Under the pieces are notes generated by a model, which searched no databases, was not told the DNA's origin, and saw only the letters and a program-made list of their open reading frames with translations. Both the position numbers and the translations under genes were made by a program. A stretch of 64,000 nucleotides of DNA from a virus. Shown here one piece after another: positions 2,540 through 63,526 of this stretch; position 1 is the first letter of the stretch; every line of letters starts with the position of its first letter. The stretch covers positions 32,001 through 96,000 of the IMG/VR virus record IMGVR_UViG_3300008267_000003; one strand, given 5' to 3'.

Positions 2540-4906
2540 ATGGCTACCGCAAACACAAGATTTAAAACGCATTATGGATTACAAGCAAACTCAAACAGTT
2601 TTGTTGATGGTGACTTTACCATCAATGGTGATCTAGCCGTAAACGGTAGTATTGCTTTTCAAACCTTATCTGGACTTTCAGGCGACTTTTTTCCAAATGA
2701 AGATCAAAAGGCACTAGGCAATTCTTCACTCAGATGGAATCTTAGTGCATTTACAGCTAACGTAGGATCGACGTTTAATGTTGTTGGTGCCGCACAGATG
2801 GCTAACTCGCTTCAGGTAACCGGCCCTGTTACATTATCAAACACAATTGTTGTTACCGGAACTGCCAACGTTGTTGGATTCAATGCATCCGGTACTGCTA
2901 ATATATCTCAGAATTTTAACGTAGGTGGGTCTGCTAATGTTGGTGGCTATATCAACGCTGGTGGTAATGCTACGTTTGCATGTTCAATATTTAATCTAAC
3001 CACAAACAACACGTCAAACACTCTTACTATAAATGCAGCAAATGTAAACATTGATACAGGAGTGTTCTTTGTTGATGCTGTTAATAATAGAGTTGGTATT
3101 AATAATGCCGCTCCTGGTGTTGCTCTAAGAGTGACGGGAGATGTTGATGTATCAGGTGTTGCTAATATTCAAAGCGGAATGGTTATTGGTAATACGTTTA
3201 GTGTTACTGGAAATGTTTCTTTCGTGAATGGTTTGATTACGGCAAATCCTTCAGCTATAACAACAGGTTCTGCTAATCTCAACATAGACTCTGGTGTATT
3301 TTTTGTCGACTCGGTAAACAATAGAGTAGGAGTTAATAACACAGCTCCTGAATCAACATTGAGAGTGACTGGTGATGTTGATATTTCAACCACAGCAAAT
3401 GTTCAAGGGGATACAAACCTAAGAGGTAATCTAACGGTTAATGGTTCTGTAACCGTGCCTAATACAATTGCTGTTGGTAATACAACCGTAACTGGATTTA
3501 TCAATACATCATCAACAGCTAACGTTGGTGGTGCTGTAACACTACGAAGCACTCTAACTGTAAATGGTGCTGCAACCGTTGCAAATACATTAGCGGTTGG
3601 TAACACAGAGCTCACTGGTTATATTAACGTATCATCAACCGCAAATGTTGGTGGTGCTGCTACACTGAGAACTACTTTAACCGTAGATGGAAATTCCTCC
3701 ATATCAAACGGCCTGATTGTTTCAACAGTAAACAGTACAGCAAACTCTATCCAGTTTGGTGCAGGCAATGTTACGTTTGACACATCCGTTCTATTTGTAG
3801 ATTCTGTAAACAATCGTGTTGGTATCAACAATACAGTACCTTCTGTGGCACTAAGAGTAACAGGTGATGTAGATATTTCTGCATCAGCAAATGTACAAGG
3901 TCTCTTAACTGCTCGTGGTGGTCTTACAGTCAATGGTGTGTTAACCATAGCTAACACAGTGCTTGTTGGTAATACAGATATTGTTGGATTCATGAATGTA
4001 ACATCAACTGCTAACATTGGTGGTGCAACGAATCTAAGAAGCACTCTTGTGGTAAACGGTGCAGCCACAATTGCAAACACAATATCTGTTGGTAATACTG
4101 AGATTACTGGATACATCAACGCAACGTCTACAGCAAATGTTGGCGGTGCTACTAACTTAAGAAGTACATTGACAGTCAATGGTGCTGTTACAGTAGGCAA
4201 TACTCTTGCAGTAGGAAACACAACAATTACTGGTACAGCTAATGTATCAGGTAATGTTGGTTTAGTTGGATCGCTAATGACTGTGACCGACGATCAAAAA
4301 GTTACTATTGGCGCTGCAAATCTAGCTGTTGACACAAACGTACTTTTTGTAGATGCTACAAATAATAGAATTGGTATTAACAATTCAGCACCTACTGTAT
4401 CATTAACAATCACAGCCACAGATGGTATTCAAATTCCAGTCGGTAATACCACTCAACGCCCAACAGGTGCTGTAGGATTGTTTAGGTTTAATAATGAACT
4501 AACTAAGCCTGAGGTGTATTACAACAGTTCATGGAATACGTTTATTACATCAGGAGAGTTGGTAGGTAATTCAGAACCAATTCCAAATACACTAGCGTTC
4601 CGTGATACCAATGCTGATATATACGCAAATAATTTCTACTCAATATCTGACGTAGTTTTAAAAGAAAATATACATAATATTAACGACCCATTAAAGATTC
4701 TTTCACTAACGGGTAAAGAGTACAATTTTAAAGGAGCATCTAGAAAGCAGTATGGATTTGTTGCTCAAGATGTGGAAAAGATTATACCAGAAATTGTAGA
4801 TAAAAAAGGATCGCTAAAGGCTATCAACTACATTCAAATCATAGCTATGCTAGTCGAGACAGTCAAGCACTTGGATAAGAGAATCAGTGACCTGGAGCGT
4901 GACTGA
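2540..4906 (+). CDS. Tail fibre with C-terminal intramolecular chaperone (peptidase S74) domain
   Basis: Internal repeats ('NVGGA.TLRSTLTVNGA', 'FVDxVNNRVGINN'). C-terminal 'SDVVLKENI...YGFVAQDVEKIIPEIV...INYIQIIAMLVETVK' is the S74 signature. Confidence 0.85.
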   Translation: MATANTRFKTHYGLQANSNSFVDGDFTINGDLAVNGSIAFQTLSGLSGDFFPNEDQKALGNSSLRWNLSAFTANVGSTFNVVGAAQMANSLQVTGPVTLSNTIVVTGTANVVGFNASGTANISQNFNVGGSANVGGYINAGGNATFACSIFNLTTNNTSNTLTINAANVNIDTGVFFVDAVNNRVGINNAAPGVALRVTGDVDVSGVANIQSGMVIGNTFSVTGNVSFVNGLITANPSAITTGSANLNIDSGVFFVDSVNNRVGVNNTAPESTLRVTGDVDISTTANVQGDTNLRGNLTVNGSVTVPNTIAVGNTTVTGFINTSSTANVGGAVTLRSTLTVNGAATVANTLAVGNTELTGYINVSSTANVGGAATLRTTLTVDGNSSISNGLIVSTVNSTANSIQFGAGNVTFDTSVLFVDSVNNRVGINNTVPSVALRVTGDVDISASANVQGLLTARGGLTVNGVLTIANTVLVGNTDIVGFMNVTSTANIGGATNLRSTLVVNGAATIANTISVGNTEITGYINATSTANVGGATNLRSTLTVNGAVTVGNTLAVGNTTITGTANVSGNVGLVGSLMTVTDDQKVTIGAANLAVDTNVLFVDATNNRIGINNSAPTVSLTITATDGIQIPVGNTTQRPTGAVGLFRFNNELTKPEVYYNSSWNTFITSGELVGNSEPIPNTLAFRDTNADIYANNFYSISDVVLKENIHNINDPLKILSLTGKEYNFKGASRKQYGFVAQDVEKIIPEIVDKKGSLKAINYIQIIAMLVETVKHLDKRISDLERD

Positions 4907-6150: not shown

Positions 6151-6783
6151 ATGTACGTAATTACTCAGCATAATAAAATACTACTTGGTCCGGTGGAGTG
6201 GAATGCGTCATATATAGCATCTGTTCTCCAGAACGATCTTGATCTATCGCAGCGACCTACGGTACTACCATCAGATATGTTTAAAGTACCCTATTACATC
6301 CTACCTGAAATATATGTAAGAAATGCTGTTGTGAATAAACCAGAATACAACCCTAAAATTCAAAAGTTTGGTGGAACTACATGGACATTTGATGAGAACA
6401 ACGGGTATGCATCACACACCATAATAGATAAAGAGCTAGACGAGGTTAAGGGTGAACTTAAAAATGCAGTAGCTGCTAAGAGATGGGATAAAGAACAAGC
6501 TGGTACTACTGCTTCAATTAACAATCAAGATATTAGTATACCAACATCACGAGATCAAAGACGTGTTTACACGGATAAATTATTGGCTATGCGGGATGAA
6601 GATACATCTATGTGGAAATTTGAAGAGACATGGATATCTCTCACCAAACAGAATTTATTAGAGATTGTTAGAGCTATAGATACATCGGTTCAAGGTGCAT
6701 TTGATTGGGAAATTGAAAAGTGTAGTGAAATTGATTCATGCACCACACTTCAGCAGCTGGATCAAGTAAATTTAGATGGCTAA
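6151..6783 (+). CDS. DUF4376-like tail fibre assembly/chaperone protein
   Basis: 'AAKRWDKEQAG...WKFEETWISLT...VQGAFDWE...EIDSCTTL'; AGGAG RBS. Confidence 0.65.
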   Translation: MYVITQHNKILLGPVEWNASYIASVLQNDLDLSQRPTVLPSDMFKVPYYILPEIYVRNAVVNKPEYNPKIQKFGGTTWTFDENNGYASHTIIDKELDEVKGELKNAVAAKRWDKEQAGTTASINNQDISIPTSRDQRRVYTDKLLAMRDEDTSMWKFEETWISLTKQNLLEIVRAIDTSVQGAFDWEIEKCSEIDSCTTLQQLDQVNLDG

Positions 6784-56310: not shown

Positions 56311-56841
56311 ATGAACAAATTTTATATTATGATGTTGGTAGTGGCTCTTGGTGCTTGTTCTAGTAATAAGATGACCAAAGTTCCAGAATCAACTGGTCTT
56401 GTTCCAGACTGGTTTGCATCCGAGCCTCAGAAAGACAGTACTGATGTTGTTGTTACTGCAACTGATATATCTAAGGACATGCAGTTTGCAATTGATAAAG
56501 CAATGTTAAATGCACGAGTAGAACTGGCTAACCGTATCAGTACTAAGGTAGAATCAATAGTTCGAGAATCTGTTATAGAAGATAGTTCATCCAAGGTTAA
56601 GGATGTAGAACGTGAGGTTGATCGAGTATCTAAACAAGTTACGGAACAGGTGCTATCAATGTATACACGTGAAAAACTTGTTGTGGTTAAAGAAGGTGGC
56701 GGTTATAGAGCTTATGTAATGCTCAAGCTATCTGAAGATCAAGGTCGTAAGCTGTTCAACAACGCTCGCAAAAGTTCTAAGAATAGAGAGGCTGCTTTTA
56801 GAGAACTTGATTCTGAAATTGAAAGATCAAGAAAAAACTAA
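56311..56841 (+). CDS. Lipoprotein (LPP20-like)
   Basis: Lipobox 'LGAC' after the signal peptide; 'VPDWF'. Confidence 0.7.
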   Translation: MNKFYIMMLVVALGACSSNKMTKVPESTGLVPDWFASEPQKDSTDVVVTATDISKDMQFAIDKAMLNARVELANRISTKVESIVRESVIEDSSSKVKDVEREVDRVSKQVTEQVLSMYTREKLVVVKEGGGYRAYVMLKLSEDQGRKLFNNARKSSKNREAAFRELDSEIERSRKN

Positions 56842-56869
56842 AATATTTTTAGTAAAAGTTTGATTTACG

Positions 56870-56898
56870 TTGACATTTTTTATATATAGTAGTACGAT
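56870..56898 (+). promoter_or_regulatory. sigma70 promoter of the tRNA array leader
   Basis: TTGACA-17 nt-TACGAT. Confidence 0.75.
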
Positions 56899-56926
56899 TA
56901 CTTTTTTTTGCAGGACCATTGGAATA

Positions 56927-57016
56927 ATGATACAGATACATACAACCCCCCAGATTTCCATTAATGGCTTTACGAAGCCAGGATATCGCGCCGACTCATG
57001 GAGCGAGATATCATAG
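56927..57016 (+). CDS. Putative 29-aa leader peptide MIQIHTTPQISINGFTKPGYRADSWSEIS
   Basis: AGGA/GGA upstream; stop codon abuts the antiterminator/terminator hairpins. Confidence 0.6.
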   Translation: MIQIHTTPQISINGFTKPGYRADSWSEIS

Positions 57017-57048
57017 GGTCATAGTATACTCCGTATATTCCAAGACCC
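57016..57048 (+). promoter_or_regulatory. Putative antiterminator hairpin
   Basis: GGGTC..AGTATAC-TCC-GTATATT..GACCC; its 3' strand overlaps the terminator 5' arm. Confidence 0.55.
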
Positions 57049-57074
57049 GAGCAAAACGACTCGGGTTTTTTTTT
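57045..57074 (+). terminator. Intrinsic terminator (attenuator)
   Basis: ACCCGAG-CAAAACGA-CTCGGGT followed by 8 more T. Confidence 0.85.
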
Positions 57075-57075
57075 A

Positions 57076-57087
57076 GCTCTCTAACAA
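57076..57087 (+). promoter_or_regulatory. boxA-like antitermination site
   Basis: GCTCTCTAACAA, one mismatch to rrn boxA GCTCTTTAACA, just before the first tRNA. Confidence 0.6.
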
Positions 57088-57099
57088 TTAGGATCCATT

Positions 57100-57189
57100 G
57101 GAAGCTTGGCTGAGTGGTTTAAGGCAGCGGTCTTGAAAACCGTCGATCGTTTGCGCGGTCCGTGAGTTCGAATCTCACAGCTTCCACCA
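57100..57189 (+). tRNA. tRNA-Ser(TGA)
   Basis: Cloverleaf, long V-arm, CCA. Confidence 0.93.
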
Positions 57190-57260
57190 TATAAAAGTAC
57201 ACTAACCACTACAGTAGGGATCCTGGTGGGGCTGCTACACCCTAGTGTACTTTTATATGG
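57187..57260 (+). ncRNA. Long-stem element H2 between two tRNA-Ser genes
   Basis: Perfect 18-bp inverted repeat 57187-57204/57243-57260. Confidence 0.55.
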
Positions 57261-57348
57261 AGAATTGGCTGAGAGGCTTAAGGCAGCGGTTTGCTAAACC
57301 GTCGATTCAGTAATGGGTCCACTGGTTCGAATCCAGTATTCTCCACCA
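57259..57348 (+). tRNA. tRNA-Ser(GCT)
   Basis: Cloverleaf, long V-arm, CCA. Confidence 0.93.
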
Positions 57349-57363
57349 ACTAAGGAGGAAGAA

Positions 57364-57960
57364 ATGGCAAATATATTTTTAGTTAGCGATACCCATTTTG
57401 GTCATGCTGGTGTTTGTCGTTTCCTTAGAGACGATGGAACCAAGCTTCGGCCATGGGATGATCCAAATGATATGGATGAAGCTATGATTGAAAAATGGAA
57501 CTCTGTTGTCAAACCAAGAGACAAGGTGTATCATCTTGGAGATGTAGTAATAAATCGGAAAGCATTAAAGATACTAGGATTGCTTAATGGTGATAAGGTT
57601 TTAATCAAAGGTAATCACGATATCTTTAAGCTAGAGGATTATACACCTTACTTCAGAGATATTCGTGGTTATCATGTAATGAGTGGAATGATATTAAGTC
57701 ATATTCCAGTTCATGAAAGTAACCTTTATAGATTTGGAACAAATATTCACGGTCATACTCATAGTAACCGAGTAATGAAAACAGTTACTGTGCAAGAGTC
57801 TAGTCCGTATGATCCAAGACCGTATGATGTTAAAAAGCAAGTTATCGATCCTCGATACCACTGTGTATGTGTTGAACAAACTGACTTTGCACCAATCTCT
57901 TTTGAGGATGTAAAGTTACGAATCAAGGCAGAAGGTGGTGACATATCATTTAAAAGTTAA
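57364..57960 (+). CDS. Calcineurin-like metallophosphoesterase
   Basis: AAGGAGG RBS; 'SDTHFGH', 'HLGD', 'GNHD', 'HGHTH'. Confidence 0.88.
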   Translation: MANIFLVSDTHFGHAGVCRFLRDDGTKLRPWDDPNDMDEAMIEKWNSVVKPRDKVYHLGDVVINRKALKILGLLNGDKVLIKGNHDIFKLEDYTPYFRDIRGYHVMSGMILSHIPVHESNLYRFGTNIHGHTHSNRVMKTVTVQESSPYDPRPYDVKKQVIDPRYHCVCVEQTDFAPISFEDVKLRIKAEGGDISFKS

Positions 57961-57961
57961 T

Positions 57962-58039
57962 GCAACGGTGGCAGAGAGGCCCAATGCAAGAGTCTGCAAA
58001 ACTCTAAAACCGTCAGTTCGAATCTGACCCGTTGCTCCA
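57962..58039 (+). tRNA. tRNA-Cys(GCA)
   Basis: ctGCAaa loop, U73, CCA. Confidence 0.92.
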
Positions 58040-58048
58040 GGAGGCTAT

Positions 58049-58294
58049 ATGAGTGGTAAAGGAAGTAAACCAAGACCTTATAGTGTTGATCAGAAAACGT
58101 TTGATTCTAATTGGAATAGTATATTCAATAAGAAGAAAAAGACTGATCAAGAAAAGTTTGATGAAGCAATAATGAAGAATGAATATTATGATAAGCTAAC
58201 CACAGAAGAAGCTTTAACTGAAATGGTTAGGATTAGTGAAGAGATGGGTGCTTATGTTGATGAGCCTATTGAGAACCCATTGATTAAAAAATAA
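58049..58294 (+). CDS. Hypothetical protein ('GKGSKPRP' family)
   Basis: GGAGG RBS. Confidence 0.65.
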   Translation: MSGKGSKPRPYSVDQKTFDSNWNSIFNKKKKTDQEKFDEAIMKNEYYDKLTTEEALTEMVRISEEMGAYVDEPIENPLIKK

Positions 58295-58295
58295 T

Positions 58296-58369
58296 CTCGG
58301 TGTGATGTAATGGTAGCATAGCGATCTCCAAAATCGTTTGTTGCGGTTCGAGTCCGTACACCGAGGCCA
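58296..58369 (+). tRNA. tRNA-Trp(CCA)
   Basis: ctCCAaa loop, G73, CCA. Confidence 0.9.
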
Positions 58370-58377
58370 GAAACAAC

Positions 58378-58472
58378 GGTAGGTAGCACTGGTGTGCGGC
58401 TAGGTCTTATAAGCCTGGGAGAGCGGTCAGATGGGCTGCAACGGAAGAGTTCGAATCTCTTACCTACTACCA
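58378..58472 (+). tRNA. Non-canonical tRNA with TAT anticodon and long variable arm
   Basis: 95 nt; short 4-bp/4-nt D arm, 6-bp anticodon stem, ctTATaa loop, T arm, CCA. Confidence 0.75.
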
Positions 58473-58474
58473 AC

Positions 58475-58549
58475 GCGGATATAATTCAGTGGTAGAATGT
58501 TTGCTTGCCAAGCAAAATGTCGTCGGTTCGAACCCGACTATCCGCTCCA
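58475..58549 (+). tRNA. tRNA-Gly(GCC)
   Basis: ttGCCaa loop, U73, CCA. Confidence 0.93.
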
Positions 58550-58675
58550 CTAACAAGGAGAACCAAAATGGGGCTGTTGCAGTAATCTTTTTAGTTGTTG
58601 TATTGTTATATTTTATTGATAAAAATTCTTAGAAAGGAGTCCTGTTATGGACAGTGACAAGAGTGATAAGATGAT

Positions 58676-58752
58676 GGGTGCGTAACTCAACTGGTTAGAG
58701 TAATCGGCTTTTAACCGATAAGTTGTGAGTTCGAGTCTCACCGCACCTACCA
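58676..58752 (+). tRNA. tRNA-Lys(TTT)
   Basis: ctTTTaa loop, CCA. Confidence 0.93.
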
Positions 58753-58836
58753 TATACAAACACATTCAAACACATAATGACGCCCGGGGTTATGGATTAC
58801 TGTTACGAGGATCCAAGAGTGTGTTTCTATATGGTA
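58748..58836 (+). ncRNA. Long-stem element H3
   Basis: 20-bp stem 58748-58767/58817-58836 (one C.C, one U.G) enclosing two hairpins. Confidence 0.55.
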
Positions 58837-58841
58837 TCTAT

Positions 58842-58915
58842 TGGGGTATAGTGAAATGGTATAACAACTGGTTTTGAGCCAGTCGTCCTTGGTTCGATTC
58901 CAAGTGCCCCTGCCA
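58842..58915 (+). tRNA. tRNA-Gln(TTG)
   Basis: ttTTGag loop, 1:72 mismatch, G73, CCA. Confidence 0.9.
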
Positions 58916-58921
58916 AGTATT

Positions 58922-58996
58922 CGGTCTTTAGTAAAATGGAGATTACGCAACGCTACGGACGTTGAGGTGTGGGTTCGATTCCTGCAAGACCGGCCA
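58922..58996 (+). tRNA. tRNA-Arg(ACG)
   Basis: ctACGga loop, CCA. Confidence 0.9.
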
Positions 58997-58998
58997 AT

Positions 58999-59074
58999 GG
59001 TGTCTTTAGTGTAGTGGCCTGCATTCGAGTCTGTGAAACTCGAGGTACGAGATCGATACTCGTAAGACACCCCA
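58999..59074 (+). tRNA. tRNA-His(GTG)
   Basis: G-1:C73, ctGTGaa loop, CCA. Confidence 0.9.
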
Positions 59075-59076
59075 AT

Positions 59077-59152
59077 GCTGCTTTAGCTGATGTGGTCATA
59101 GCAGGTCCCTGAAGAGGACATGAACTAGGTTCGATTCCTAGAGGCAGCACCA
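59077..59152 (+). tRNA. tRNA-Phe(GAA)
   Basis: ctGAAga loop, CCA. Confidence 0.9.
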
Positions 59153-59162
59153 AAGTTTGAAT

Positions 59163-59247
59163 GGGAGTGCGGCGCAGTTAGAGAGGCGCGGCTGACTGTA
59201 AATCAGTTCTTTCGGGTGAGTAGGTGCGAATCCTTCCACTCCCACCA
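59163..59247 (+). tRNA. tRNA-Tyr(GTA)
   Basis: ctGTAaa loop, V-arm, CCA. Confidence 0.9.
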
Positions 59248-59251
59248 ATTT

Positions 59252-59326
59252 ACCTTCGTAGCTCAGTGGTAGAGCATTCGCTTGATAAGCGAAGGGTCAG
59301 TGGATCGTTCCCACTCGAAGGTACCA
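59252..59326 (+). tRNA. tRNA-Ile(GAT)
   Basis: ttGATaa loop, CCA. Confidence 0.9.
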
Positions 59327-59335
59327 AAGGATATT

Positions 59336-59824
59336 ATGAAAAAATTACTTTTTATTTTAATGTTGTTACCATCCATTGCAAGTGCTTGTGACAGTTACGT
59401 TATTGGATTCAAAGGCATTAACAATGTATTTGATGATAACGCTTTTAGACAGTATGCAATGAAGTATAAAGCATGTTCATTAGCTTACAGTTGGAATCAA
59501 GTGCATACAGCTGTTAAATTTATTAACAGTACTAAGAAGAAGTATCAGCTGTATGGATTCAGTAAGGGCGCAGAAAGTATAGGACAGGTTTTAAAACAAG
59601 TTAAACGCAAACCATACCACGTAGTAACAATTGGTGCTTACCATACTGCGAATGTTAACTATAGAGTGTACGGTGTGTCAACGCAGAACTATTTTGACGG
59701 CTCGGGAAGTAGGAACAGGTCCCCGGGCACTCATATAAGAGGAGTAGATCACGAAGACATGCAAAGACACGTTAATAGTTACTATTTTGGTATCAAACAA
59801 TGCCAGCGGAGAAAGGGCTGTTGA
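59336..59824 (+). CDS. Secreted small alpha/beta-hydrolase-like protein
   Basis: AAGGA RBS, signal peptide MKKLLFILMLLPSIASA, 'YGFSKGA' GxSxG motif. Confidence 0.6.
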   Translation: MKKLLFILMLLPSIASACDSYVIGFKGINNVFDDNAFRQYAMKYKACSLAYSWNQVHTAVKFINSTKKKYQLYGFSKGAESIGQVLKQVKRKPYHVVTIGAYHTANVNYRVYGVSTQNYFDGSGSRNRSPGTHIRGVDHEDMQRHVNSYYFGIKQCQRRKGC

Positions 59825-59849
59825 CTTATTTTTGTGCTTGAGAGATAAT
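59821..59849 (+). promoter_or_regulatory. sigma70-type promoter
   Basis: TTGACT-17 nt-GATAAT. Confidence 0.7.
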
Positions 59850-59880
59850 ACATTTGTAACCATTGATAAAGGATAACATT

Positions 59881-60303
59881 ATGAAATTAGCTGCCGGTAA
59901 GTATGTGATTGCAGACCCCTGCTACATCCTCAATGAGGAAGTGTACTTCAGACTGCTGAAAGAAACCAACTACTTCATGTACGAAGCTGTTGAACGTGGT
60001 GGTGTAATGTCAGACAGTGAGACGGGAAAGTTCTTTGCTGTATTCAGTACCAAGTATGGTGATGGCACATACAGGGATGGTAAGGGATTCAAGTATGGTG
60101 TAGATGCAGGTTGCATTGCATGTATCCCTGCTGAGATGTGTGATCTGAAAGAAGACCGTGAGTACATCAACGAAGTAACTTTTGCTAGAGACTTCGAGGT
60201 ACGGTACGAGGATGGTTTGATTATATTTGGAGATGTAATTATTAATACTGATCCAGATGATTTTTATGATGATGAGGAAGAAAGCTACGAAGATGTAGCG
60301 TAA
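59881..60303 (+). CDS. Conserved phage hypothetical protein
   Basis: AAGGA RBS; 'YVIADPCY', 'TKYGDGTY', 'VDAGCI'. Confidence 0.7.
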   Translation: MKLAAGKYVIADPCYILNEEVYFRLLKETNYFMYEAVERGGVMSDSETGKFFAVFSTKYGDGTYRDGKGFKYGVDAGCIACIPAEMCDLKEDREYINEVTFARDFEVRYEDGLIIFGDVIINTDPDDFYDDEEESYEDVA

Positions 60304-60312
60304 GGTTTTAGT

Positions 60313-60387
60313 GCACCGTTCGTCTATCGGTTAGGACATTGCCCTTTCACGGCAGTAAGAGGAGTTCGATTCTCCTACGGTGTACCA
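60313..60387 (+). tRNA. tRNA-Glu(TTC)
   Basis: ctTTCac loop, CCA. Confidence 0.92.
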
Positions 60388-60506
60388 TTTGATATGCTGG
60401 TTGTAAGCCATGGGCCGCAAGCCTGAGTAACTATCACAATATCTGGTTATCTCGAGTAACTCCAGTGAGTCGATAGCAAATAGTGCAGCCAGCATTTCAA
60501 ATGGTA
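60383..60506 (+). ncRNA. Long-stem element H4
   Basis: 23-bp stem 60383-60405/60484-60506 (two U.G, one U.U) enclosing a branched interior. Confidence 0.55.
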
Positions 60507-60513
60507 ACATAAA

Positions 60514-60880
60514 GGTTTGGCAGGAGCAGAGTCCAGTGGGAAGGACGACTAGGGGCCTGTAAAAACAAAGTAGTGAAACAATGGTATATCAACCATCAAA
60601 GTAGCGAACAGCCCTTATAGTAAACGGAGTAGCGGGAGAGAGTGATGTCTCAATGTGTCTACACCGGCCAAAAGAATCCCGTAGTCCCGTCTACGTTATT
60701 AACGGGGGTGTATTGGCACTAACCAGAACGCCAGGGTGCATACGATCACGGACCTCAAAACTCACTGACATGAGTGATAGAAACATCGTAGGTGGGTATC
60801 ACACCTTGTTTAACCAAAAGTAAATGTGATGGACAGAGTAACTGCTCAGGAGGGGGCTTATGGGAATGAGTAGCCTTCCA
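60514..60880 (+). ncRNA. Unknown ~365-nt structured RNA, copy B
   Basis: Paralogue of 54604-54968; no ORF. Confidence 0.6.
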
Positions 60881-60887
60881 AGATTAT

Positions 60888-60964
60888 TGACCAGTAGCAC
60901 AGTTGGTAGTTGCATCTGACTGTTAATCAGAATGTCGGTGGTTCGAGCCCACCCTGGTCAGCCA
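60888..60964 (+). tRNA. tRNA-Asn(GTT)
   Basis: ctGTTaa loop, G73, CCA. Confidence 0.93.
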
Positions 60965-60980
60965 AATTAGAAAGGGTAGT

Positions 60981-61220
60981 ATGTGGGAAGTAATATTTAC
61001 GTTCTTAGCGTTATTCTTTACAGATATATTTTACACATACTATCTAAGATCAATACAGAATGAGCAGCCACTTGCATCTAGTATATGGGCTGTGATTGTA
61101 TTTGCTGTTGCCAGTGTAGCAGTAATCAACTATACTACTAATCACTGGCTTCTCATTCCTGCATGCCTAGGTGCTTTCTGTGGCACTTACGTAGGTATGA
61201 TTCTGAGGAGAAAGAAATAA
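60981..61220 (+). CDS. Small multi-pass membrane protein
   Basis: Three hydrophobic segments, basic C-terminus. Confidence 0.65.
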   Translation: MWEVIFTFLALFFTDIFYTYYLRSIQNEQPLASSIWAVIVFAVASVAVINYTTNHWLLIPACLGAFCGTYVGMILRRKK

Positions 61221-61295
61221 GGTTCCAAAGTGTTCATGGACGCACACGACACTGTCACTGTCGAAGAAGGGGATCGTTACCCCTTGGGACCGCCA
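61221..61295 (+). tRNA. tRNA-Asp(GTC)
   Basis: ctGTCac loop, G73, CCA. Confidence 0.88.
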
Positions 61296-61331
61296 TCATA
61301 TATACATTATTGTTAACTTCCAAAGGTAATA

Positions 61332-62120
61332 ATGAAAGCACTAATACTTTCCTTTGCGTTGCTGTTCAGTACCAACGTCCTGTCAGCAACCCAGTACGTA
61401 TATAACTATTCAAAAAATGAAATTGTGATAGATGAAGGTTCAGATAAGGTAAGACCCATTGCAAGTGTTACAAAGTTGATGACTGCTATTGTAATCCTTG
61501 AAAGTGAAGTTAGCCTAGATGAAAAAGTTCCTTATAAAGGATTCAAGAACATTCCATCCAAGCAAAGAACAAGAGACGAGTTGTTAGCTCTCCTGCTGAT
61601 TAAGAGTGACAACAACGCTGCAGAAGCTCTTGCAAGAAGTTTTCCAGGTGGTAGAGATCATTTTATTGATATGATGAATGTAACATCCAAGTTCCTGGGC
61701 ATGGAGTATACTACGTATGATGATCCTTCTGGTCTTAGTCCTAGAAATCAAAGTACTGCAAAAGATCTTACAAAGCTGTTGCATTATGCTTCGACCTACC
61801 CTAAAATCAAACAGATTGCTTCTATGACTAGCTTCATGTTGGTAGAACCTTCTGTAAAGAAGGCAACAGCAAAGAAGAAGAAAAAGAAAGCAAGAACATT
61901 CAGTAGTTATAGAGTGATTACAGTAAACAATACTAACTTTCATCTACTGAATGAATACGAAGAGATTGAGATCTCCAAGACTGGATACACCAATCCAGCT
62001 GGTAAGTGCTTAACAATGTTTGTTACTAAGAATGGTGAGCATTTTGCAGTTGTTATTCTTGGTGAGCGTAATATGAGAGATGTAGAAAAAGTATCAAGAA
62101 AGATTTTAGATAATCTGTAG
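61332..62120 (+). CDS. D-alanyl-D-alanine carboxypeptidase/endopeptidase (peptidase S11, PBP7-like)
   Basis: Signal peptide; SxxK 'ASVTKL', 'SDN', 'KTG'. Confidence 0.88.
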   Translation: MKALILSFALLFSTNVLSATQYVYNYSKNEIVIDEGSDKVRPIASVTKLMTAIVILESEVSLDEKVPYKGFKNIPSKQRTRDELLALLLIKSDNNAAEALARSFPGGRDHFIDMMNVTSKFLGMEYTTYDDPSGLSPRNQSTAKDLTKLLHYASTYPKIKQIASMTSFMLVEPSVKKATAKKKKKKARTFSSYRVITVNNTNFHLLNEYEEIEISKTGYTNPAGKCLTMFVTKNGEHFAVVILGERNMRDVEKVSRKILDNL

Positions 62121-62193
62121 CCCTTTTAGTTAAATGGTATAACACTTGATTTGTAATCATGGATTGGCAGTTCGATTCTGTCAAGGGGCACCA
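62120..62193 (+). tRNA. tRNA-Thr(TGT)
   Basis: ttTGTaa loop, CCA. Confidence 0.9.
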
Positions 62194-62194
62194 T

Positions 62195-62271
62195 CTGAGT
62201 GTAGTTCAGCCTGGTAGAATGCCTGCTTTGGGAGCAGGAGGTCGGGAGTTCGATCCTCTCCACTCAGACCA
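62195..62271 (+). tRNA. tRNA-Pro(TGG)
   Basis: ttTGGga loop, CCA. Confidence 0.93.
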
Positions 62272-62280
62272 ATTATAGGA

Positions 62281-62649
62281 ATGGTTATGACTAAATTATT
62301 TGGTAAAGTTGATAAGGGTTGGGGCCATGAACTTATATGGGCATCGACCGATCAGTATTGCTGCAAGTTTTTAAACTTTGATAGACCAGCAGCAAAGACA
62401 TCAATGCATTATCATGAACATAAAGATGAACAGTGGTATGTTCAGAGTGGTAGGTTTCAGGTCGACTGGATTAATCTAGAAGATGGTTCGACAAAGTTTT
62501 GTAATCTTGAGGTAGGAGATACATGGCATAATTATGCTGGTACACCTCATAGGTTAGTTTGTATTGAACCTGGAACAGTAGTCGAAGTGAGCACTGCTGA
62601 TAGTGTTGAGGACAACTACAGGATTATTCCTGGCGATAGCCAGAAATAA
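62281..62649 (+). CDS. Cupin (mannose-6-phosphate isomerase-like) protein
   Basis: 'KGWGHELIW', 'SMHYHEHKDE', 'PHRL', 'EVST..DNYRI.PGDSQ'. Confidence 0.8.
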   Translation: MVMTKLFGKVDKGWGHELIWASTDQYCCKFLNFDRPAAKTSMHYHEHKDEQWYVQSGRFQVDWINLEDGSTKFCNLEVGDTWHNYAGTPHRLVCIEPGTVVEVSTADSVEDNYRIIPGDSQK

Positions 62650-62658
62650 TAAACAAAT

Positions 62659-62740
62659 GCGCATGTGGTGAAATGGTAGACACGCTAGTCTTAGGAACTA
62701 GTCTTTCGGGGTGGGGGTTCGAGTCCCTCCATGCGCACCA
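62659..62740 (+). tRNA. tRNA-Leu(TAG)
   Basis: ctTAGga loop, V-arm, CCA. Confidence 0.93.
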
Positions 62741-62790
62741 CACACTCGCGTTTGTTGACCGCGTATAATAGGATAAGTTGTCAACATCTA

Positions 62791-62864
62791 GCCTCGTTAG
62801 TTTAATGGTAGAACTCCATCCTTACACGGTGGTTACGGTGGTTCGATTCCATCACGAGGCACCA
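62791..62864 (+). tRNA. tRNA-Val(TAC)
   Basis: ctTACac loop, CCA. Confidence 0.9.
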
Positions 62865-62871
62865 AATTAAA

Positions 62872-62957
62872 GCCCGGGTGGTGGAATGGTAGACACAGCA
62901 GACTTAAAATCTGCCGCTTGAAAGGGCGTACCGGTTCGAGTCCGGTTCTGGGTACCA
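62872..62957 (+). tRNA. tRNA-Leu(TAA)
   Basis: ctTAAaa loop, V-arm, CCA. Confidence 0.92.
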
Positions 62958-62969
62958 ATAGGAGATGAT

Positions 62970-63170
62970 ATGAGTATAGTGCTTCGAAGAGATCAGATAG
63001 AAAAACTAATTGACATTTATAATCACTTTCATGAGATACAATCGTTTACTATCTCTCTGGATGATAATTCTGATATGATATCAATCAACTTCGATATTAA
63101 CGATGTTAAAGCAGATTACAAACCAAGTGAAAAGTTTGATAAACCCTTCAAGCCTATGGTGTTTAAATGA
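62970..63170 (+). CDS. Hypothetical protein
   Basis: AGGAG RBS. Confidence 0.6.
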   Translation: MSIVLRRDQIEKLIDIYNHFHEIQSFTISLDDNSDMISINFDINDVKADYKPSEKFDKPFKPMVFK

Positions 63171-63367
63171 AAATAGAACTCAGTGATGATACAGTCAATC
63201 GTCTCATATGGGATGTTCTATATGAAGACCTCAAAATTTTTAGAGTAGACTTGAATCGACTGGATAGTATGTCTATACTCAATGAAGCAGATCGTAGAGA
63301 TTACAAAGACTACCTAAGATATATCAACGCTCTTGAAACTCTTTTAGAGTATTATAGCGTTAAATAA
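63167..63367 (+). CDS. Hypothetical protein
   Basis: ATGA overlap with the upstream gene. Confidence 0.6.
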   Translation: MKIELSDDTVNRLIWDVLYEDLKIFRVDLNRLDSMSILNEADRRDYKDYLRYINALETLLEYYSVK

Positions 63368-63371
63368 ACAC

Positions 63372-63446
63372 CTGGCGTTCGTTCAACGGATAGGACAGGA
63401 GTCTTCTAAACTCTTAATGGGGGTTCGATTCCCTCACGCCGGACCA
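63372..63446 (+). tRNA. tRNA-Arg(TCT)
   Basis: ctTCTaa loop, CCA. Confidence 0.92.
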
Positions 63447-63452
63447 ATCAAT

Positions 63453-63526
63453 GCGGGATTAGTTTAATGGTAAAACAGCAGATTTCCAATCTTCGGTTAT
63501 CAGTTCGATTCTGATATCCCGCTCCA
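63453..63526 (+). tRNA. tRNA-Gly(TCC)
   Basis: ttTCCaa loop, U73, CCA. Confidence 0.9.

Follow-up and report, generated by a model that had tools for sequence, protein, structure and literature searches.

The window analyzed here, a 64,000-nt stretch of viral DNA, comprises positions 32001-96000 of the IMG/VR record IMGVR_UViG_3300008267_000003, a phage contig of 162,011 bp with direct terminal repeats at its ends. The contig encodes a major capsid protein of the T4 type (Gp23 family, E 3.5e-155), and the source is a T4-like freshwater phage. The 25 tRNA genes found genome-wide serve all amino acids except Ala; a permuted tmRNA with a 10-residue tag was also identified by ARAGORN outside the window (genome positions 6176-6544). 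The tRNA array of the window is preceded by a small cassette, present in one copy in this genome, whose upstream neighbour is an LPP20-like lipoprotein gene with a lipobox. The features of the cassette and of the region behind it are listed below in window coordinates.

56870..56898, plus strand: sigma70-type promoter; -35 TTGACA at 56870-56875, 17-nt spacer, -10 TACGAT at 56893-56898; scores 10/12
56912..56915, plus strand: Shine-Dalgarno sequence AGGA, 11 nt 5' of the ATG
56927..57016, plus strand: leader ORF; ATG at 56927, 29 sense codons, TAG at 57014-57016
56984..57001, plus strand: Y-R codons (56984-56989) and W codon (56999-57001) of the leader, invariant across cassettes
57016..57020, plus strand: 5' arm of helix P1, GGGTC; it starts on the final G of the TAG and is complementary to GACCC at 57044-57048
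57023..57039, plus strand: hairpin P2, enclosed by P1; predicted in every cassette
57042..57074, plus strand: intrinsic terminator; 10-bp stem 57042-57051 / 57060-57069, 8-nt loop, nine T to 57074
57076..57087, plus strand: boxA-like 12-mer in the 25-nt spacer before tRNA-Ser, one base off the E. coli rrn boxA core
From 57100, plus strand: tRNA-Ser(UGA), first tRNA of the array; 22 further tRNAs up to 63526
57100..59326, plus strand: putatively gated proximal region; two tRNA-Ser, a metallophosphoesterase gene (57364-57960), a small ORF and the tRNAs from Cys to Ile
59327..63526, plus strand: distal tRNA array; 10/12 promoter-like sites at 59821 and 61108

A preliminary description of the locus had proposed a promoter, a 29-codon ORF, the GGGTC arm, a terminator, a boxA-like motif and the tRNA-Ser gene, and all of these were recovered at the same positions. 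In the window sequence alone each part of the cassette stands near the chance level and is weak as evidence. The leader promoter, which is preceded by an A/T-rich tract (56841-56859), belongs to a class of sites that is modestly enriched (39 observed vs 29 expected in 12 kb). Strong canonical terminators are scarce in the genome (about one in every 20 kb of coding strand), and the terminator described here is the top terminator match of the scan, with the longest T run among the terminator-like hairpins of the genome. About 4 of 10 other terminator-like hairpins in the genome have a confident upstream partner of at least 5 nt for their 5' arm in a fold of the nascent RNA (45 nt upstream plus the terminator 5' arm). 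Because terminator arms often find an upstream partner by chance, a pair of mutually exclusive hairpins in a single sequence is no evidence by itself; the cassette is accepted as real because it is kept in six related contigs with compensatory changes. Two other strong terminators of this genome, both outside the window (about 115160-115206 and 112060-112110), have a 5' arm that pairs upstream with a mean probability of 0.99 and 0.68, respectively, and could represent further switches or chance pairings.

Related cassettes in uncultured phages

With the lipoprotein gene as an anchor, 22 viral and 69 metagenomic loci were retrieved. Six homologous cassettes were recovered by BLAST, a weak peptide match and a covariance model, all of them in contigs of uncultured phages.

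L030: lipoprotein identity 86%; cassette at about 1755-1997
L044: lipoprotein identity 68%; cassette at 2686-2925
L032: lipoprotein identity 65%; cassette at 1560-1789
L002: lipoprotein identity 65%; cassette at 3540-3744
L040: lipoprotein identity 59%; cassette at 1596-1851
L008: lipoprotein identity 53%; cassette at 4106-4302

The preliminary description had suggested a test for a conserved layout in related phages, and the layout proved to be conserved. Six cassettes (the window, L030, L032, L044, L002 and L040) have the full arrangement of promoter, Shine-Dalgarno sequence, ORF, TAG running into P1, P2, terminator with 8-9 T and tRNA gene, and a seventh (L008) has the stop codon on P1, P2 and the terminator. 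In the five relatives with the full layout the -35 and -10 hexamers are retained at a spacing of 16-17 nt, and AAGGA or AGGA lies at an equal distance from the ATG. The tRNA that follows the terminator is Ser(UGA) in five of the full cassettes and Gln in L040. In L008 a 45-aa DUF7230-like ORF that has no promoter of its own ends on P1, and the gene behind the terminator is protein-coding, not a tRNA.

P1 was found only where an ORF ends on it, and five terminator-only relatives are without the antiterminator. Four relatives (L006, L003, L005 and L009) have no leader, yet an equivalent strong terminator lies directly before equivalent downstream genes, so that some read-through must happen without the switch. 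The cassette was not found among 50,697 cultured-phage records searched with megablast, blastn and tblastn, where tRNA-Ser provided the only matches. When the peptide alignment and the covariance model were run against viral contigs and another 99 loci, L008 was the only addition, and in an Rfam search over 52-64 kb tRNAs alone scored above threshold, the leader having no match.

In the window a 13-nt segment of the Shine-Dalgarno region (56912-56924) recurs as a direct repeat, with one indel, at 57090-57104, extending into the 5' end of tRNA-Ser. This repeat was seen only in the present phage; the Shine-Dalgarno region of L030 repeats another 8-mer from the tRNA 5' end. A small basic ORF of 41-49 aa lies just 5' of the cassette or terminator in relatives, at the following positions.

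L005: 3521-3646
L038: 459-584
L032: 1417-1551
L044: 2558-2689
L040: 1463-1612
L008: 4106-4243

This ORF matches phrog_20887 and, below threshold, the Pfam family DUF7230; it has 371 matches in viral contigs and no copy in the genome of the window itself. In L005 and L038 this small ORF ends with a stop codon inside the terminator loop, and in L008 it is fused to the C-terminal motif of the leader. A possible resemblance to ArfA was considered and dropped, since the sub-threshold DUF7230 match was all that Pfam returned and NCBIfam returned nothing.

Pairing of P1, P2 and the terminator

Positions 57044-57048 are common to P1 and to the 5' arm of the terminator, the stem of which begins 26 nt past the last base of the stop codon; the T run ends 25 nt before tRNA-Ser. 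The stop codon overlaps the first base of P1 in all seven cassettes. In the model-based alignment A7, which holds seven sequences only and was fitted to a model containing P1, standard P1 pairs are formed in 35 of 35 cells. Compensatory double changes affect two of the five P1 pairs (G-C to A-U in L008 and U-A to G-C in L040), and a U-A pair has become U-G in L002. When the partner is slid by one column, at most 57% of the P1 cells remain paired, and a score as high as the observed one is attained by 12 of 500 column shuffles. In each lineage the shared arm has likewise kept its pairing with the terminator 3' arm, the stem being conserved or compensated in all relatives. Retention of both pairings is the pattern expected for two competing helices, and the covariation of the stop-adjacent GGGTC and GACCC segments that had been anticipated in the preliminary description extends to both partners of the shared arm. 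The arms of P2 vary among cassettes yet remain able to pair, and L044 shows a clean compensatory change; P2 is also found in L006.

In the nascent-RNA fold the terminator 5' arm is paired with a probability of about 1.0 in all seven cassettes, compared with only 0-0.5 in five terminator-only relatives (L006, L005, L038, L003 and L009). The minimum-energy structure of this fold is P1 + P2 in every cassette, at -10 to -16 kcal/mol. P1 is only 5 bp long, and at equilibrium the terminator state is predicted to be about 4 kcal/mol stabler in five cassettes; in L040 the P1 state is the energy minimum even with the 3' arm present. As the terminator state is mostly the stabler of the two, the choice between P1 and terminator would be kinetic. 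In folds of the full-length naked RNA the P1 5' arm pairs elsewhere in 3 of 5 leaders. A candidate anti-antiterminator formed by ORF codons 6-8 with the P1 5' arm appears in 3 of 5 naked-RNA folds and was rejected, as it is not conserved.

The pairing data bear directly on another explanation, in which the ORF is an independent micro-protein gene, driven by a promoter of its own and followed by an ordinary, slightly leaky terminator, the GGGTC pairing is non-regulatory and the tRNAs are expressed by constitutive read-through. Such a gene would be in keeping with a conserved peptide (pN/pS mostly 0.3-0.85), with the equivalent terminators before equivalent genes in leaderless relatives and with the high frequency of chance alternative pairings. 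We consider it improbable, given the two compensatory double changes in a helix that is paired in 100% of the cells, the occurrence of P1 only where an ORF ends on it and the overlap of stop codon and P1 in 7 of 7 cassettes. The constraint on synonymous sites and the lack of a family match for the peptide argue against it as well.

Complementarity was also noted between the start region (56909-56938) and the 3' arm of P2 with its linker (57021-57043), and likewise in L030 and L044. The duplex energies for the window, L030 and L044 are -9.6, -12.1 and -10.2 kcal/mol, each the best of its row in a 5 x 5 cross-comparison; the complementarity beats shuffled sequences in these 3 of 5 cassettes only and fails to do so in L032 and L002. 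In the terminated RNA such a duplex could keep the start site inaccessible. It would also suit a reading in which the terminated transcript of about 170 nt is itself the product, a structured and possibly dual-function small RNA to which the ORF is secondary, as would the folding of the leader (z -3.2 relative to shuffles) and a nucleotide conservation that exceeds the needs of the protein. This we regard as highly improbable: the leader has no Rfam match, the hairpin within the ORF is no better than shuffles in 3 of 5 cassettes, the Shine-Dalgarno sequence, ATG, frame and stop position are all conserved, and the 5' half varies in nucleotides while the frame stays.

The leader ORF and its peptide

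The preliminary description had made its proposal depend on a conserved leader, and the ORF is indeed open over 28-29 codons in each of the six full cassettes, the L002 version having a 3-nt indel that preserves the frame. Alignment A3 of the leader peptides contains 13 invariant columns; one Glu codon is absent from three homologues. Counted from the last residue, Y occupies position -10, R position -9 and W position -5 in 7 of 7 cassettes, L040 and the fused L008 ORF among them, so that the spacing Y-R-x3-W-x4-stop is constant, and the stop codon is TAG throughout. In codons 14-26 of the leader pS is 0-0.18, compared with 0.59-0.82 (saturated) in the neighbouring lipoprotein gene. Leader synonymous sites are thus nearly frozen, which implies selection on nucleotides or codon identity besides the peptide. 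A conserved hairpin inside the ORF (codons 19-29) was considered and rejected: its register differs among cassettes and its z score is -0.1 to -0.7 in three of five, so a hairpin that does not exceed shuffles does not explain the frozen sites. An overlapping ORF in the +1 frame (56964-57113) was likewise set aside as unconserved, as it meets an early stop in L044. These comparisons suggest that the leader ORF is translated and subject to more than one kind of constraint.

The invariant Y-R...W suggests a role of the peptide itself, possibly in setting the dwell time of the ribosome at the stop codon. This raises an alternative in which the switch is the same and the sensed event is pausing at or near the stop that depends on the nascent peptide, not the codon-by-codon speed of translation; Y-R-x3-W-x4-stop would then act in the exit tunnel, perhaps together with a small molecule or the supply of RF1. 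The fixed position of Y, R and W relative to the stop, even in L008 with its otherwise different protein, speaks for such pausing, as do the use of TAG in all seven cassettes and the free variation of three or four residues past W. The TAG is demanded by P1 pairing too, however, and a peptide requirement neither accounts for the frozen synonymous sites nor offers an explanation of the high leader diversity. Moreover, the leader peptide has no family match in Pfam, PHROG or phage-database searches and is unlike any known arrest peptide or family. Pausing of this kind as the sensed event is in our view unlikely.

The diversity of the leader had been stressed in the preliminary description, which called it a codon sampler. 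In the window the ORF uses 24 different codons for 17 amino acids and has a GC3 of 0.52 vs 0.31 in the long ORFs of the genome; codon diversity, amino-acid diversity and GC3 each give P of about 0.05-0.09 relative to 29-codon windows of the phage's own long ORFs. Eight of its codons have a relative usage of 0.14 or less. The homologues are in line with this characterization, with 18-19 amino acids each and, at most, 27 distinct codons among 28. The six free-standing leaders (28-29 residues) contain 17, 19, 18, 19, 18 and 19 different amino acids, for which P ranges from 0.05 down to 0.001 relative to the phage's own proteins; this diversity sits largely in the conserved core, so that the six leaders do not count as independent tests. 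If all amino acids were equally frequent, 19 different ones would still correspond to P 0.011. The L040 leader shares 7 of 28 residues with the window leader in the C-terminal register, and 27 of its 28 codons are different from each other.

The sampling is incomplete in some respects. Leu is missing from 4 of the 6 leaders, and the end of the L008 ORF is of ordinary diversity, with 14 different amino acids. The codon run for a single amino acid that characterizes classical attenuators is absent, the leaders holding 17-19 amino acids instead. Sensing of Ser-tRNA through S-W-S codons that match the first tRNAs of the array was examined as a candidate and rejected, because L008 has Q-W-G there. 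A pure codon-speed sensor, for its part, would not predict the invariant Y-R...W.

The tRNA region and the proposed switch

Between the cassette and 59821 no terminator-like site of more than 6 pairs was found, and a sigma70-type scan gave no 10/12 promoter-like site outside coding regions. The 10/12 sites at 59821 and 61108 lie in the distal array, which possibly has its own promoters; because of them the switch may govern the proximal part only. The claim of the preliminary description that the whole array is gated is thereby narrowed, in that gating may be limited to the proximal part.

The preliminary description had also named a separate downstream promoter for the tRNAs as a point against its proposal. 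The sigma70-type scan detected no such promoter in the spacer between terminator and first tRNA, either in the window or in the longer spacers of relatives. In L006, L002, L030 and the window this spacer is only 10-25 nt, too short to accommodate -35 and -10 elements past the T run. Both observations weigh against the possibility that the terminator merely ends lipoprotein or small-ORF transcripts and that the tRNAs are transcribed from a phage-specific or weak promoter in the spacer, the boxA-like motif being an element of that promoter. In favour of such a promoter, conservation of the spacer motif is limited to versions of the locus with tRNAs downstream, and a T4-like phage may have promoter classes of its own beyond the sigma70-type covered by the scan. 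P1 covariation is not explained in this way, however, and we judge a spacer promoter very unlikely.

The identification of the motif as boxA is tentative. At one mismatch or fewer the genome contains 2 matches vs 1.2 expected, which is statistically weak, and the consensus used is that of E. coli and may not be the host's. Related boxA-like motifs are present in every version of the locus with a tRNA downstream and in none with an ORF downstream, a distribution that fits a putative role in protecting untranslated RNA from Rho. As the motif lies 3' of the terminator it cannot aid read-through of that terminator.

Two further peculiarities of the proximal region were recorded. The spacer separating tRNA-Ser(UGA) from tRNA-Ser(GCU) is taken up by a near-perfect hairpin of about 69 nt (57190-57258), whose arms run from the first tRNA's CCA end to the 5' end of the second; Rfam gave sub-threshold miRNA-like matches only. 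The corresponding spacer is of equal size in L030 and only 5 nt in L002, and these sizes suggest that the hairpin is either an inserted element or a site of processing. The tRNA-Ile(UAU) at 58378-58472 is 95 nt long, with its anticodon at position 31, and has only a weak tRNA-Sec-like match in Rfam; L007 and L041 have a 92-nt version.

From the comparison of the seven cassettes, the element is probably a ribosome-mediated (leader-ORF) transcription attenuator that heads the tRNA-rich region of the phage. Transcripts would begin at the conserved promoter (about 56905) or arrive from upstream. Past the stop codon the RNA would fold as P1 + P2, locking the GC core of the terminator 5' arm, and as a default state the polymerase would read through into tRNA-Ser and beyond. 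A ribosome that reached the last codons or the TAG in time would cover the P1 5' arm and half of P2. The ribosome footprint reaches about 12-15 nt past the A site; the terminator stem lies beyond this, so that a ribosome at the stop codon should leave the terminator free. With P1 blocked by the ribosome the terminator would form, and transcription would end at 57074. The output of the tRNA region would consequently rise whenever leader translation was slow, stalled or not begun, which would amount to negative feedback on translation capacity. The attenuator of the preliminary description is thus strengthened by the layout, the P1 covariation and the link between ORF and P1 in relatives, and it is weakened by L008, where the element would gate a protein gene.

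As to the physiological signal, the general sensor of tRNA integrity that had been suggested is plausible and gains some support from the diversity of the leader. It is possible, and we advance it only tentatively, that the element works as an all-amino-acid leader attenuator, in which any shortfall of tRNA or of translation would switch the phage tRNA set on and restored translation would switch it off. Such shortfalls may include host shut-off, starvation and anticodon-nuclease defence.

The purpose of phage tRNA sets and the timing of their expression are actively debated, the proposed roles being compensation for codon usage, tolerance of a degraded host translation machinery and escape from tRNA-cleaving defences. 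A cis switch that ties tRNA transcription to translation performance would provide a concrete and testable control logic for phage arrays. If true, the phage would provide the first known case of a tRNA operon under ribosome-mediated attenuation and also the first 'all-codon' leader, and leader-ORF attenuation would reach beyond amino-acid and antibiotic-resistance operons into viruses and stable-RNA genes. Being self-contained, about 200 nt long and equipped with signals of bacterial type, the element lends itself to reporter tests that do not require the uncultured phage.

Several known systems invite comparison. The amino-acid operon attenuators of E. coli and Salmonella (trp, his, leu, thr, pheA) likewise place a short ORF near the promoter and rely on antiterminator and terminator hairpins that exclude each other, and in both cases a ribosome that finishes the leader would lead to termination and a stalled one to read-through. 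The phage element differs in its maximally diverse leader without a codon run for a single amino acid, in having no conserved anti-antiterminator of the 1:2 type and in a stop codon that is part of the antiterminator; it is moreover phage-borne, and the genes it would regulate are tRNAs and a phosphoesterase. In the tna operon the leader peptide TnaC has an essential Trp at a set distance from the stop codon, and its stalling blocks the access of Rho and results in read-through. Here, too, a short conserved peptide has Trp fixed relative to the stop, and a ribosome at the stop would govern downstream termination; in contrast to TnaC, with which there is no sequence similarity, that ribosome should favour intrinsic termination. 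The boxA and Nus-factor antitermination of rrn operons and lambda nut sites (PMC4807359) resembles the present case in that a boxA-like 12-mer lies between a promoter and long untranslated stable-RNA genes; it differs in that neither boxB nor boxC was seen here and the motif is a weak match.

The closest parallels in the sensing of translation come from two leader ORFs of other bacterial genes, and on account of these precedents general translation sensing is not as novel as the preliminary description had supposed. In bmrB-bmrCD of Bacillus subtilis, translation of the leader ORF picks the terminator or the antiterminator, read-through increases when translation slows, and its basal level is determined by rare codons (PMC4191407). 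The proposed switch has the same polarity as such antibiotic-sensing leaders and as the basal decision of trp-type attenuators, and the eight rarely used codons of the window leader recall those of bmrB; the bmrB terminator, however, lies inside the leader ORF and its output is a drug exporter, whereas here the terminator is 26 nt past the ORF and the output is tRNAs. The toiL uORF of topAI-yjhQ in E. coli has been described as a multipurpose sensor of many translation stresses, which it registers by stalling at different positions (PMC12121999). It shares with our reading the concept of a 'general' sensor of translation stress; toiL acts by unmasking a ribosome-binding site and through Rho-dependent termination, in contrast to the intrinsic terminator and antiterminator of the phage cassette. 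The principle of attenuation is known from such systems, and what is new here, in our estimation rather probably, is its ribosome-mediated form applied to phage tRNA genes through a maximally diverse leader.
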